Source of the DNA: an uncultured Gemmatimonadaceae bacterium
GTDB lineage: Bacteria; Gemmatimonadota; Gemmatimonadetes; Gemmatimonadales; Gemmatimonadaceae
Length of the DNA stretch: 64,000 bases
Reading direction: 5' to 3'
Assembly: GCA_963790305.1 (NCBI GenBank)
Contig: CAWBOC010000010.1
Location: forward strand, 288,001-352,000
Within the stretch, counting starts at the first letter, position 1, and every line of letters starts with the position of its first letter. A program made the position numbers. Shown here one piece after another: positions 30,001 to 33,000 of the stretch.

Positions 30001-33000
30001 TCGAGGCGAGCTCGGGCGCCACCACTTTGACGGCGACCTGCCGGTCCAGTCTGAGATCGCGCGCAAGAAACACCGCGCCCATCCCGCCCGTGCCAAGCGC
30101 GCGCTCCACCTCGTACTCGGGCGCGAGCGCCGCGCGCAACGTCTCGAGCAGTCCGGTGTCGCTGTCGCTCATCGACGTGCGCTATCGAAGGGGCGCGGCG
30201 GCGGCGCCAGCCATCCGCTCCGGGTCGAGAGCGCGGTCGAGCTCGTCGCGCGTCATGAGACCGCGCTCCATCACGAGCTCGTACACGCTCCGTCCGCTGT
30301 CGAGGGCGGTGCGCGCGACCTCGGTGGCGGTCTCGTAGCCGATCGTGGGGACGAGCGCGGTCACGATCCCGATCGAGTTCTCGACGAACCAGCGCATCCG
30401 GTCCGGATTGGCGGTGATGCCGAGCACGCACCGCTCGCGAAGCACGACGCAGGCGTTGCGAAGCGACTCCATGCCGCGCAGCAGGCGGAACGCGATGATC
30501 GGCTCGAAGACGTTGAGCTGGAGCTGTCCCGCTTCCGCCGCCAGCGTCACCGTCACGTCGCCGCCGATCACATCGAAGCACACCTGATTGACGACCTCGG
30601 GGATCACCGGGTTGACCTTCCCCGGCATGATCGACGAGCCCGGCTGCATCGGTGGCAGATTGATCTCCGCGAGTCCCGCGCGCGGGCCGGACGACAGCAG
30701 CCGAAGGTCGTTGCAGATCTTCGAGAGCTTCACCGCGCTGCGCTTCACGACTCCCGAGAGCTGCACGAACACGCCGGTGTCGGCGGTCGCCTCGACGAGG
30801 TCGGGTGCCGTGATCACGGGAATGCCGCTGATTCGCTCAATGTGCGCGCGCACTGCTTCCGGATAGTGCTCGGGCGCGTTGATGCGCGTTCCGATGGCGG
30901 TCGCCCCCATGTTGATCTCGCGAATCAACGCCTGCGCTTCGCCCAATCGGTCGACGTCTTCGAGGATCGTGTGCCCGAACGCGACGAACTCCTGGCCGAG
31001 GGTCATGGGCACCGCGTCCTGCAGCTGCGTGCGGCCCATCTTGAGCATTCCGGCGAACTCGCGCCCCTTCGTCTTGAACGCGGCCGCCACCTCGGTCAAC
31101 GACTGTTGCAAGCTGGCAATGCTCGCATGAAGCGCGAGCTTCACCGCCGTCGGGTAGACGTCGTTCGTCGACTGCGAGAGGTTGACGTGATTGTTCGGGT
31201 GCACCACGTCGTAGTCGCCGCGACGGCGGCCCATGAGCTCGAGCGCGCGATTGGCGATGACCTCGTTGGCGTTCATGTTCGTCGACGTGCCGGCTCCCCC
31301 CTGAATCATGTCGACGAGAAAGTGCTCGTGATGCCGGCCCGCCCGAACCTCCTGAGCGGCGCGGACGATGACTTCGGCCAACTCCGGCGGCAGGAGACCG
31401 AGATCCTGATTGGCGAGCGCTGCTGCCTCTTTCACGATGGCGAGCGCGTTGATCAGGGTCGGGAACTCGCGCAACGCCACACCAGTGATCGGGAAGTTCT
31501 CCACCGCGCGGAGCGTCTGGATCCCATAGAGCGCGTCGTCCGGAACCTGACGGTCGCCGAGCAGGTCGTGCTCCTCGCGGGTGCGGCCACCGCCGAAGCC
31601 CATGGTGCGCCCACGTCCGACCAGCGTCGCGTCGGCCGCTCGGAGGCGCTCGGAGATCGCCCGCGCGGCCCGCGCGACGAGCGATGCGTACAGCGTGGCG
31701 CGATCCTTCAGGATCTCCTGAATGTCCGCCGCTTCGAGATACGCGAGCTCCGTCCGCTCGAGCGTGCGCGCGCTCGTGCCGTGCGGCGAGTCATCGAGCA
31801 GAATCCCTTCGCCAAGCGCTTCGCCCGCGCCGAGGCTGGCGAGTCGCTCGACTCGGTCGCCGCGGCGTTTTTCGATCGCGACGCTTCCGCTGACGATGAT
31901 GCCGAACAGGTGGCGCGGATCGCCCTCGCGGAAGATCGTTTCATCCGCTTCGAGGGTCCGCTCCCGCATGCGCCGCGAGAGATGCCAGAGGTTTTCCTGC
32001 GGGAACCCGCTGAAGAACGAGAAGGCACGCAGGCGATCGGCCAGGGCAGTCGGCATGGTCCGTGGAAGCTACTGGCTGCGCCCTCAAGCCTGCTAGGCAG
32101 GATTCTGTAGGGATCAGGGGTCAGGAGTCAGGGGTCAGGGAAGGAAAGGGGCCGCCGCGCTGCGCGCGTGCGGCCCCTCATCAGAATGAGCGCGGCAGCT
32201 TCGCTGCCGCGCCGTTCCATCCCTGATCCCTGACCCCTGACTCCTGACCCCTGACTCCTGACCCCTAATTGTGGGCAGGTAGCCCTCGCCTCGCCAGCCG
32301 CACAGATTCCCCACGTCCATTCTCATGAGGCTGCCAATGTCTTCCGTGTCTCGCCGACGCTTTCTTGGCACTGGTGCCGCCGCCGCGGCCGGACTGTCGC
32401 TCGGAGGCGCGCGCAGCATCGAGGCGCACCCCCTCGCGACCAGCTGGCGCGCCACGCGCCCCACCGTCATCGCCTCCGAGAATGGGCTGCGAGGAGTGGC
32501 GCGCGCGTACGAGATGCTCGCGAAGGGCGCTGACCCGCTCGACGCTGCGATCGCCGGCGTCAACATCCAGGAGCTCGACCCCGAGGATCAGTCGGTGGGG
32601 CTTGGAGGACTGCCGAATGCCGATGGCGTCGTTCAGCTCAATGCGTCGTGCATGCATGGTCCCACGCGACGCGCCGGCGCGGTTGCCTCGCTCGAGGGGA
32701 TCGCAACGCCATCGCTCGTCGCCAAGGCGGTGATGGACTACACCGACCACATATTCCTCGTGGGTCCGGGAGCGAAGCAGTTCGCCCTGCAGATGGGGTT
32801 CAAGGAGCAGAACCTTCTCACCGAGAAGTCGCGGCAGGACTGGCTGCGGTGGAAGGCGCGTCTCAACGCCGACGACAACTGGCTCGACCACGACGACGAC
32901 GTCACCATCAAGTTCTCGACCGGCACGATCAACATGAACGCGGTCACCGCGAGTGGTGACATCGCGTCGGTCACCACCACCAGCGGACTTTCCTGGAAGA

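Follow-up and report, generated by a model that had tools for sequence, protein, structure and literature searches.

The window is a 64,000-nucleotide stretch of a contig from an uncultured Gemmatimonadaceae soil bacterium. On its minus strand lies a gene in which a cyclic nucleotide-binding (CNB) fold domain precedes an aspartate ammonia-lyase (aspartase) in a single chain, with an asparaginase gene diverging from it. The features of the locus are:

30182..32056, minus strand: CNB-domain/aspartate ammonia-lyase fusion gene, 624 aa plus stop, ATG start (Pfam, NCBIfam)
31616..32056, minus strand: N-terminal CNB-fold domain (N-domain), aa 1-147, a beta-barrel plus a long C-helix (Pfam PF00027, AF2, Foldseek)
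31913..31915, minus strand: codon of R48, an invariant residue of the beta2-beta3 loop; Gly in canonical CNB domains and in the nearest CRP relatives
31766..31813, minus strand: cassette equivalent, aa 82-97, GEGILLDDSPHGTSAR (HMMER alignments, conservation)
31781..31783, minus strand: codon of H92, which does not vary among 116 full-length homologues or among 35 N-domains of three families
31616..31699, minus strand: C-helix, aa 120-147, predicted dimer interface, with invariant L126 and R137 and near-invariant L138
31580..31615, minus strand: linker, aa 148-159, RGRTMGFGGGRT (conservation, AF2)
30206..31579, minus strand: aspartase catalytic part, aa 160-617, Lyase_1 plus FumaraseC_C (Pfam, NCBIfam, solved-chain matches)
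31469..31471, minus strand: codon of R196, candidate contact of domain or linker, invariant in the family's fused proteins and varying in the lineage without the domain
31334..31336, minus strand: codon of R241, candidate contact with the same pattern as R196
30608..30640, minus strand: 'SS loop' signature GSSIMPGKVNP, aa 473-483, without variation among 116 homologues
32325..33386, plus strand: Asparaginase_2 (Ntn-type asparaginase/isoaspartyl peptidase), divergent neighbor with a near-threshold Tat-signal match

According to Pfam, the fusion protein contains three families: (i) cNMP_binding (PF00027) at aa 33-118 (E 5.9e-16, HMM 2-88 of 89), with 58.7 bits against a gathering cut-off of 27.5 bits; (ii) Lyase_1 (PF00206) at aa 168-498 (1.9e-89, HMM 2-312 of 312); and (iii) FumaraseC_C (PF10415) at aa 564-616 (1.4e-21). 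The Pfam search found no helix-turn-helix family in this protein, and the C-helix leads into the lyase instead. An earlier note on this DNA had held that the fusion is no assembly artefact, and this is borne out by full-length open frames in many genomes. The window gene is a single, stop-free open frame, the same architecture is present in 61 of 94 and 46 of 57 genomes of the window's family as well as in cultured Gemmatimonas species (among them G. aurantiaca, P0055, and G. groenlandica, P0110), and all 120 matches listed for a query with the N-domain alone are PF00027+PF00206 proteins. The fused genes of G349 and G286, which had been flagged for internal stops, are open, full-length frames on inspection; the flag presumably came from reading through the natural stop. 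The chance that assembly or gene calling created the fusion is therefore negligible. A split form with a separate N-domain gene was also considered, and the short database proteins P0143, P0300, and P0305 are fusions on long contigs with a frame broken after the linker.

Aspartase joins amino-acid nitrogen to the TCA cycle and serves as an industrial biocatalyst. By its sequence, the lyase part appears to be an ordinary, complete aspartate ammonia-lyase, with a predicted deamination of L-aspartate to fumarate. It scores 725.9 bits against NCBIfam PRK12273 'aspartate ammonia-lyase' (cut-off 510), 668.9 bits against the equivalog TIGR00839 (12 bits short of the cut-off of 681.2), and 452 bits against fumC_II (cut-off 665). 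Residues 158-617 match full-length solved aspartase chains with 497-551 bits (551 to 3oce and 514 to 1jsw), compared with at most 382 bits for fumarases. The signature loop motif of aspartases is GSSxMPxKxN, and GSSIMPGKVNP is what we take to be their flexible 'SS loop', with its catalytic role. The same genome was said to hold a plain paralogue as well. A 475-aa protein of this kind exists (G000 C13), but at 47% identity it falls into another, phylum-wide clade and is perhaps no redundant aspartase.

In addition to the window's family, the fusion is found in two other families of the same class. Among the best 80 genomic relatives, all those with a name are Gemmatimonadota, and the restriction to this phylum, as far as searched, holds. 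When 1.84 billion representatives were searched with an N-domain profile, the top 150 were mostly multi-CNB repeat proteins and fragments, which is uninformative on distribution or origin. The domain has been both gained and lost in evolution. Thirteen orthologues that lack it fall into a single clade (SH-aLRT 97) within the fused ones. The N-domain is dispensable for the enzyme, as expected of a regulatory add-on. In 16 genomes of the lineage without the domain, no stand-alone close copy of it was found; the best matches, up to 70 bits, are ordinary CRP/FNR paralogues. The asparaginase neighbor, already pointed out in the earlier note, is recognized by Pfam, adjoins 20 of 29 fused loci of the family, and fits a role in asparagine/aspartate catabolism. 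Two other elements of the locus were rejected. A Ser/Thr kinase gene (26978..30172), 9 nt downstream, adjoins the fusion only in the window's genus and at one other locus (35% identity), and what looked like a CRP-site palindrome in the divergent promoter region is a dispersed repeat element.

The AF2 model of the N-domain (pLDDT 88.1) is an eight-stranded barrel with a cassette helix and a B/C helix. The Foldseek top matches listed are M. tuberculosis CRP, GlxR, PKG, and PKA-R (probability 1.00, TMq 0.59-0.78), and Epac is also matched with probability 1.00. The nearest unfused relatives are CRP-type regulators with 32-35% identity, whose DNA-binding families are PF13545 and PF00325. In HMMER alignments with solved cAMP receptors, G82-E83 align on the canonical cassette Gly-Glu (the ribose contact) and H92 aligns on the phosphate-binding cassette Arg (Arg209 of PKA RI-alpha), the residue that had been described as missing. 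Four HMMER alignments place R48 on the loop Gly (Gly169) and H92 on the cassette Arg, while G84 occupies the position of the usual cassette Leu, Ile, Val, or Met. At the R48, H92, and G84 sites, the nearest CRP relatives have Gly, Arg, and Met, respectively. Read from these alignments, the pocket differs from that of canonical cAMP receptors by a coupled swap (R48 for Gly and H92 for Arg) and by G84 in place of Leu/Met. The pocket is lined by charged R48, E83, D88, and D89, in a geometry (including the position of R48 relative to H92) that is taken from alignment to solved relatives and not from measured distances. According to Kannan et al. (2007; PMC2246266), the beta2-beta3 loop Gly and the cassette Arg co-evolve and touch, and loss of this Arg is the most frequent mark of a non-cNMP ligand.

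Conservation in the N-domain peaks at the pocket, and surface positions vary freely. R48, E83, G84, H92, G93, T94, and R97 are invariant in the 116 full-length homologues, and R48, G82, E83, G84, H92, and R137 are still invariant after the addition of six fusions of the two other families (31-38% identical). The domain is under purifying selection: in 13 pairs of the window's family, its dN/dS is 0.03-0.24 and that of the catalytic part is 0.04-0.09. In one pair (f8), selection on the N-domain is relaxed (dN/dS 0.53). With the pocket as its most conserved part and dN/dS in this low range, the domain looks like a working sensor rather than a decayed remnant, in agreement with the bolder reading of the earlier note.

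The N-domains are predicted to pair through the C-helix in a CRP-like manner. A homodimer of aa 1-148, modeled with cAMP as an unscored component, had a score of 0.77 (best of 3 controls, 0.00). Of proteins solved as same-chain pairs, 20 of 30 reach this score mark, as does 1 of 23 single-chain structures; these counts are only roughly valid here because an alignment of our own and a ligand were used. Contact agreement between the runs was at least 97% and partner pLDDT at least 90. Since solved CRP dimers look alike, passing the mark may stem from this resemblance. The predicted interface is the C-helix (contacts 141:141, 138:138, and 134:134), and D142 of one copy touches K63, L72, G93, and T94 of the other. 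These contacts alone could account for part of the conservation of the five residues. They would fit an alternative in which the domain binds no ligand and acts as a structural module, for oligomerisation, stabilisation, localisation, or constitutive autoinhibition, with a 'pocket' made of interface residues. The missing canonical Arg would suit such a module, as would the retention of the domain in lineages without a detected cyclase (see below). However, H92 and R48 are not among the confident predicted interface contacts, and E83, R48, and H92 do not vary even between proteins of 31-38% identity, whose barrel surface otherwise drifts; this is what a binding site would show. Moreover, aspartases are already stable tetramers, and the 13 orthologues manage without the domain. 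A purely structural role is thus rather improbable.

Within the window's family the linker is strongly conserved, whereas the other two families have a different one; it is predicted to be disordered. In the full-length AF2 model it has a pLDDT below 50 (aa 141-153), and therefore no docking of the sensor on the enzyme is predicted. When fused and unfused catalytic domains were compared, no position combined a conservation of 90% or more in the whole set of fused proteins with a change in the unfused clade. A looser filter yielded ten positions, of which R196 and R241 are the clearest; they are conserved only within the window's family and became variable after domain loss.

The rebuilt pocket (R48, H92, and G84) suggests that the ligand is probably anionic and nucleotide-like, and it need not be cAMP. 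About a third of our expectation falls on cAMP, and an equal share on another small molecule. In a true cAMP receptor, the phosphate Arg would have moved to R48, H92 would assist, and E83 would keep the ribose 2'-OH, so that cAMP from the FHA-GAF-class III cyclase could switch on aspartate catabolism at the enzyme. The cassette Gly-Glu and the E83/R137 pair, presumably the analogue of CAP E72-R123, are kept, and the closest sequences and folds (M. tuberculosis CRP, GlxR, and PKA-R) are bona fide cAMP binders. A class III cyclase and CRP-type regulators had been claimed for this genome, and indeed it has a single class III cyclase (FHA+GAF+cyclase) as well as a CRP-type regulator whose cassette is canonical. 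PF00211 is present in 59 of the 61 fused genomes of the family and in 1 of the 13 genomes with a domain-less orthologue, the latter match being weak (49.5 bits). Likewise, 14 of 16 fused genomes examined have a CRP orthologue (61-100% identity), compared with none of 16 genomes examined from the lineage without the domain (G426 and 15 genomes of g5, g10, and g22, 12 of which have a domain-less orthologue and 3 no orthologue).

On the other hand, the loss of the domain was a single event, so its coincidence with the loss of cyclase and CRP has little statistical weight. Neither a CRP orthologue nor an FHA-GAF cyclase was found in g29 (G286, 100% complete; G349, 94%), and there was no match to a class I, III, or IV cyclase in G349, G016 (99% complete, 4 contigs), or G266 (99%). 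The fused genes of the g29, G016, and G266 lineages have every key residue intact, and the N-domain of the g29 pair has a dN/dS of 0.127 at dS 0.69. PF00211 was also not found in 3 of the 6 fused genomes from other families, and the replaced cassette Arg again speaks against cAMP. The proposal that the ligand may be neither cAMP nor cGMP is thus indirectly strengthened by three independent lineages with no detected class I, III, or IV cyclase but an intact domain, constrained in g29, and weakened by the lineage that is without domain, cyclase, and CRP alike. Taken together, these data make the cAMP receptor outlined above somewhat unlikely. It is possible, and suggested here tentatively, that the rebuilt pocket, with its Arg moved to the beta2-beta3 loop, a His at the old site, and a cassette made wider by a Gly, accommodates a metabolite that is formed without a dedicated cyclase. 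Such a ligand could be a 2',3'-cyclic nucleotide released by RNA decay, AMP or IMP, or else a C4/C5 dicarboxylate, for example 2-oxoglutarate. If this were true, the enzyme would be a self-contained sensor of carbon/nitrogen or energy status, and the pocket would represent a new ligand class for the CNB fold.

H92 could also be the axial ligand of a haem-based gas or redox sensor, since the His of CooA analogous to the cassette Arg coordinates haem, as stated by Kannan et al. (2007; PMC2246266). DNR, a haem/NO-responsive relative, is weakly matched (E 1.4e-3 and 3e-3), but CooA itself is absent from the 64 sequence-search matches and from the listed Foldseek top matches. The canonical ribose-binding Gly-Glu, which CooA lacks, is retained here, and the pocket lining is charged, not hydrophobic. 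A haem sensor is accordingly very unlikely.

The N-domain is thus most likely a putative ligand-sensing regulatory module on the aspartase, and the enzyme would probably be switched directly by a small molecule. As a fuller proposal, for which we see an even balance, the N-domain would be a working CRP/CNB-fold sensor that tunes the aspartase upon small-molecule binding. Two N-domains would pair via their long C-helices, as in CRP, and this pairing would place two sensor dimers on each aspartase tetramer. The small molecule could be held by G82-E83-G84, H92-G93-T94, and R48, together with D142 of the partner's helix, and its binding would alter the geometry of the helix pair. The conserved 12-residue linker could then pass this change on to the lyase, at its first strand and its domain 1 close to R196/R241, whereby the breakdown of aspartate to fumarate and ammonia would be tuned. 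The coupled Gly/Arg to Arg/His swap offers a clean natural experiment on the re-tuning of a CNB pocket. Natural controls exist in the orthologues that shed the domain and in the lineages that keep it without a detected cyclase, and with them the question of the ligand can be addressed directly in cultured Gemmatimonas strains.

The N-domain shares its fold with CRP-family cAMP receptors (M. tuberculosis CRP, 3d0s/3i54/4a2u; C. glutamicum GlxR, 4byy/3r6s; E. coli CAP, 1g6n; Foldseek E 9e-12 to 6e-10), and the cassette Gly-Glu, the C-helix Arg-Leu, and a predicted dimer of the same kind via the long C-helix are kept. Unlike these receptors, the window protein has no DNA-binding domain and its output is an enzyme; the cassette Arg is His, the loop Gly is Arg, and the Leu/Met is Gly. 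Residues 158-617 resemble solved AspA (3oce/3ocf from Brucella, 6wng, and 1jsw from E. coli) and AspB (1j3u from Bacillus) over their full length, with the signature GSSIMPGKVNP retained. With a 467-aa query, none of these solved aspartases matched N-terminal of query residue 2, i.e., before aa 159, and in comparison with them the 157 residues ahead of the catalytic part are new in the window protein.

Control of aspartase is so far known to be mainly transcriptional or exerted via separate proteins such as PII. The claim of a 'first ligand-gated aspartase' cannot be upheld as worded, since a preprint (bioRxiv 10.1101/2021.03.01.433382) reports that E. coli AspA is stimulated by GlnB/PII. That system is likewise a post-translational tuning by a signal-sensing protein, but its sensor is separate and acts in trans, whereas in the window protein the sensor fold lies within the enzyme chain. 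A literature search for aspartase or aspartate ammonia-lyase together with a cyclic nucleotide-binding domain found no such fusion described. A working in-chain sensor would provide a lyase with a compact switch that could be transferred.

Other CNB domains that have lost the cassette Arg have a changed ligand, according to three papers (PMC10959531, PMC2246266, and PMC6243067). These domains include kinetoplastid PKA-R (nucleosides), CooA (haem), NtcA (2-oxoglutarate), and PDZ-GEF (Met/His at the Arg site). The change in kinetoplastid PKA-R, as described there, also needs a Glu at the Ala202 position, where the window's family has Ile, Leu, Val, or Met and the other families have Ser or Thr. 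NtcA, in Table 1 of PMC2246266, is without the Gly-Glu that is kept in the window protein.

The mycobacterial acetyltransferase Pat (4ava, 4onu) and the Bdellovibrio EAL enzyme Bd1971 (6hq2-6hq7) also combine an N-terminal CNB domain with a catalytic domain in one chain, and the N-domain matches them in sequence with E-values of 7.5e-6 and 5.8e-6, respectively. Both of these enzymes are regulated by cAMP. In contrast, the window enzyme is a tetrameric lyase of central metabolism with a non-canonical cassette. It is a variant of the known CNB-regulated enzymes, one whose own regulation is putative.

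The aspartase gene of the window (aspA) encodes two parts: (i) an N-terminal domain of the cyclic-nucleotide-binding (CNB) fold; and (ii) a C-terminal aspartate ammonia-lyase.

30182..32056, minus strand: CNB/aspartate ammonia-lyase fusion, an ORF with an ATG start and 624 residues

According to Pfam, residues 33-118 match cNMP_binding (E 5.9e-16, 58.7 bits against a cut-off of 27.5, HMM positions 2-88 of 89), residues 168-498 match the entire Lyase_1 model (1.9e-89), and residues 564-616 match FumaraseC_C. Among NCBIfam models, the fusion protein scores 725.9 bits with the aspartase subfamily PRK12273 (cut-off 510), 668.9 bits with the aspartase equivalog TIGR00839 (cut-off 681.2), and 452 with the class II fumarase model, far below its cut-off of 665. 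When compared with solved structures, residues 158-624 reach up to 551 bits with aspartases and at most 382 with fumarases. These matches, together with a GSSIMPGKVNP loop that is invariant across 116 full-length homologues, mark the C-terminal 460 residues, as judged by sequence, as an ordinary and complete aspartase. The earlier note's description of an aspartase with an extra N-terminal cNMP_binding domain is borne out by the ORF and by the Pfam, NCBIfam and structure matches.

A predicted model of residues 1-160, for which 35 N-domains from genomes served as input, has a mean pLDDT of 88.1 and contains a beta-barrel, a short cassette helix (83-86) and a long C-helix (120-147), with residues 148-160 disordered. 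Its Foldseek neighbors are M. tuberculosis CRP, GlxR, a Streptomyces regulator domain, PKG, Epac2, PKA-R and E. coli CAP (E 9e-12 to 7e-10, prob 1.00, TMq 0.59-0.78). HMMER aligns the pocket region to these CNB proteins without gaps: the canonical Gly-Glu is matched by G82-E83, the phosphate-binding Arg by H92, the next Ser/Thr by G93, and the second Gly in the beta2-beta3 loop ('GDxGD/E') by R48. In PKA RI-alpha, this loop Gly (Gly169) co-evolves with and packs on the cassette Arg (Arg209), according to the available text of Kannan et al. (2007; PMC2246266). Both are altered together in the fusion, the loop Gly to Arg (R48) and the cassette Arg to His (H92). Of the unfused relatives that a search of 5.8 billion proteins found, the nearest are CRP-type regulators of ~240 aa (32-35% identical), which have Gly, Arg and Met at the positions of R48, H92 and G84, respectively. 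The window's genome also encodes a 262-aa CRP/FNR-type regulator (contig C5:479152-479403; extracted locus L067:1360-2148), whose Gly-Glu-Gly cassette (GGEGLVHGGRYVSDARA) recalls the GEG of the aspartase domain.

When two copies of residues 1-148 were co-folded with cAMP (included but unscored), the homodimer scored 0.77 and the best of three controls 0.00; of the proteins solved as pairs of one chain, 20 of 30 attain this mark, against 1 of 23 whose solved structure is a single chain, counts that are only rough here because the prediction used an alignment of our own and a small molecule. Between runs, at least 97% of contacts agree, with a partner pLDDT of at least 90, and the pass may stem from likeness to solved CRP dimers. 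The predicted interface is the C-helix (141:141, 138:138, 134:134, 131:131), and D142 of one copy contacts K63, L72, G93 and T94 of the other. A helix from the partner reaches the pocket in CAP, and in the predicted dimer the partner's C-helix would do the same.

All 120 matches listed for a query with the N-domain only carry PF00027 and PF00206; those named are Gemmatimonas aurantiaca, G. groenlandica and Gemmatimonadaceae or Gemmatimonadetes MAGs, and the outlier labels are one partial Draconibacterium protein and, in a later search, one Geminicoccaceae. Of 208 genomic relatives, the best 80 carry Gemmatimonadota names, apart from two named just 'bacterium'.

Fused aspartase in 401 Gemmatimonadota genomes, by family
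f1 (the window's family; 94 genomes including the window's own): full-length fusion 61; cut by contig end 1; close orthologue without the domain 12; frameshifted fusion 1 (G088); distant paralogue only, or nothing, 19
f4: fused 4 of 7
f8: fused 2 of 4
No fusion among the genomes searched: f2 0/166, f3 0/5, f5 0/2, f6 0/30, f7 0/70, f9 0/4, f10 0/13, f11 0/3, f12 0/3

The f1 counts include one unpublished fused genome (G157), without which 60 of 93 are fused. A further 57 f1 genomes comprise 46 with the fusion, 1 with a domain-less gene (G426), 2 with contig-end cuts and 8 with no close orthologue. The domain-less genes are truly short, the frame being closed 8-49 codons upstream. In genome G228 (L040 1504-2979), a mere remnant of the C-helix and linker precedes the lyase, while in G088 (L044 2723-2983 and 3009-4469) the N-domain is kept in another frame; these are two stages of fusion decay. 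Three short 'cNMP-binding' database proteins (P0143, P0300 and P0305), whose contigs measure 184-211 kb, are fusions with the frame broken just past the linker, either by frameshift errors or as recent pseudogenes. In a tree of 460 catalytic columns and 61 rows (LG+G4, quick search, SH-aLRT support only), the f1 sequences together have the f4 and f8 fusions as their sister, and inside the f1 clade the domain-less genes, 13 in all, group as a single clade (support 97). The simplest reading of this tree would be one gain deep in the class, followed by one later loss.

Invariant N-domain positions in the 116 homologues include R48, K63, E83, G84, H92, G93, T94, R97, R137, R150 and F154, and the barrel surface is free to vary (set thinned to 43 sequences). 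With the six f4 and f8 fusions added to those of f1, to which they are 31-38% identical in this domain, R48, G57, L72, G78, G82, E83, G84, L87, H92, L126, R137 and R160 are still invariant. Across 13 f1 pairs, dN/dS is 0.03-0.24 for the N-domain versus 0.04-0.09 for the catalytic part; the single f8 pair gives 0.53 versus 0.21. The pocket is the best-conserved part of the N-domain. The most likely reading, to which we give an even chance, is that the domain works as a dimerising sensor like that of CRP and tunes the aspartase on small-molecule binding in the rebuilt pocket. A ligand-free structural role for the N-domain appears unlikely. The full-length model (pLDDT 81.3, pTM 0.73) predicts no docking of the domain on the enzyme, and residues 141-153 fall below pLDDT 50. 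The linker, DATLVGRGRxLGFGG, is near-invariant across f1 and differs in f4 and f8. Lyase residues R196 and R241 are invariant in the 116 homologues and in 31 fused f1 genes, whereas the domain-less genes keep Arg at R196 in 3/13 and at R241 in 1/13; neither is conserved in f4/f8. This pattern fits, weakly, a putative family-specific contact of domain or linker with lyase domain 1.

In the window's genome, a single 534-aa protein (FHA+GAF+cyclase) represents the class III cyclases, and a CRP-type regulator whose cassette is canonical is encoded as well. That cAMP is the ligand sensed by the aspartase domain is a narrower and rather doubtful alternative, which agrees with the occurrence of the class III cyclase family PF00211 in 59/61 fused f1 genomes (58/60 minus G157) and in 1/13 genomes with a domain-less orthologue (a weak match of 49.5 bits in G312). 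It also agrees with the presence of a CRP orthologue (61-100% identity) in 14/16 fused f1 genomes tested, in 7/7 f1 genomes that have the cyclase but no AspA orthologue, and in 0/16 genomes of the domain-loss lineage (15 of genera g5, g10 and g22, plus G426; three of the 15, namely G036, G047 and G218, are without any AspA orthologue). The domain-loss lineage is therefore without cyclase, CRP and domain alike, but this joint absence is one loss event. Moreover, both genomes of genus g29 (G286, 100% complete; G349, 94%) are without the CRP orthologue and without the FHA-GAF cyclase; no family of cyclase class I, III or IV is matched in G349, G016 (99% complete, 4 contigs) or G266 (99%); and the sole such match is a marginal CYTH (25.9 bits) in the case of G027 and a 49-bit cyclase domain inside a 1645-aa frame in that of G286. 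Yet the fusion retains every key residue in these cyclase-poor genomes (g29, G016, G266 and G027), and N-domain dN/dS of the g29 pair is 0.127 at dS 0.69, so that the domain is kept by selection where no known cyclase was detected. PF00211 is also absent from 3/6 fused genomes outside f1. Self-made cAMP cannot be the obligatory ligand everywhere.

The surroundings of aspA contain the following features:

Divergent neighbor of aspA: Asparaginase_2 gene, 353 aa, with a near-threshold Tat-signal match
26978-30172, minus strand: 1064-aa Ser/Thr protein kinase with TPR repeats, beginning 9 nt past the aspA stop
32111-32268: dispersed palindromic element in the aspA/asparaginase intergenic region (also 16213-16358, 25237-25262 and 47219-47361)
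33217-34032, plus strand: isochorismatase-family hydrolase
35170-36306, minus strand: soluble-looking methyl-accepting chemotaxis protein (HAMP + MCPsignal)

Asparaginase_2 adjoins 20/29 fused f1 loci, 6/12 domain-less loci and 0/6 f4/f8 loci, as counted in flanks of just 1.5 kb, and the pair would provide a short pathway that turns asparagine into fumarate and two ammonia. The kinase is no conserved neighbor, its adjacency being limited to the window's genus; the cyclase of f1 carries an FHA (phosphothreonine-binding) domain. The palindromic element consists of runs of 7-base units (GGGTCAG/GAGTCAG) opposite their own reverse complement ~100 bases off, with two small GC hairpins between, and its 23-base core has 30 copies genome-wide versus 0 for a reversed control. 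The plain paralogue named in the earlier note does exist (contig C13:87694-89064; L002:1492-2916) as a 475-aa protein, 47% identical to the fusion's aspartase and aspartase-like (PRK12273, 620.5 bits; nearest solved structures 8rj1 and 1j3u), but it belongs to a separate clade present in nearly all 401 Gemmatimonadota genomes. Because the class I fumarase C-terminal domain PF05683 was not found in the window's genome (94% complete), this paralogue may serve as the fumarase of the cell and not as a second, redundant aspartase.

Loss of the cassette Arg has precedents in the available text of three papers, with nucleosides as ligand in kinetoplastid PKA-R (PMC10959531), haem in CooA (PMC2246266) and 2-oxoglutarate in NtcA (PMC6243067); by analogy, such a loss can accompany new ligands. 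A CooA-like haem sensor, to which CooA itself would be the precedent, is highly improbable here. Kinetoplastid PKA-R, in the same available text, also requires a Glu at the Ala202 position, which the aspartase-fusion family lacks. Neither an aspartase with its own CNB domain nor the coupled Gly/Arg to Arg/His swap turned up in the literature searched (few subscription journals, no supplements). In contrast, CNB-enzyme fusions are already known in bacteria from Pat and Bd1971, both of which are sequence matches of the N-domain, and the tuning of an aspartase is known from E. coli, whose enzyme is tuned by PII according to the available part of a preprint (bioRxiv 10.1101/2021.03.01.433382).
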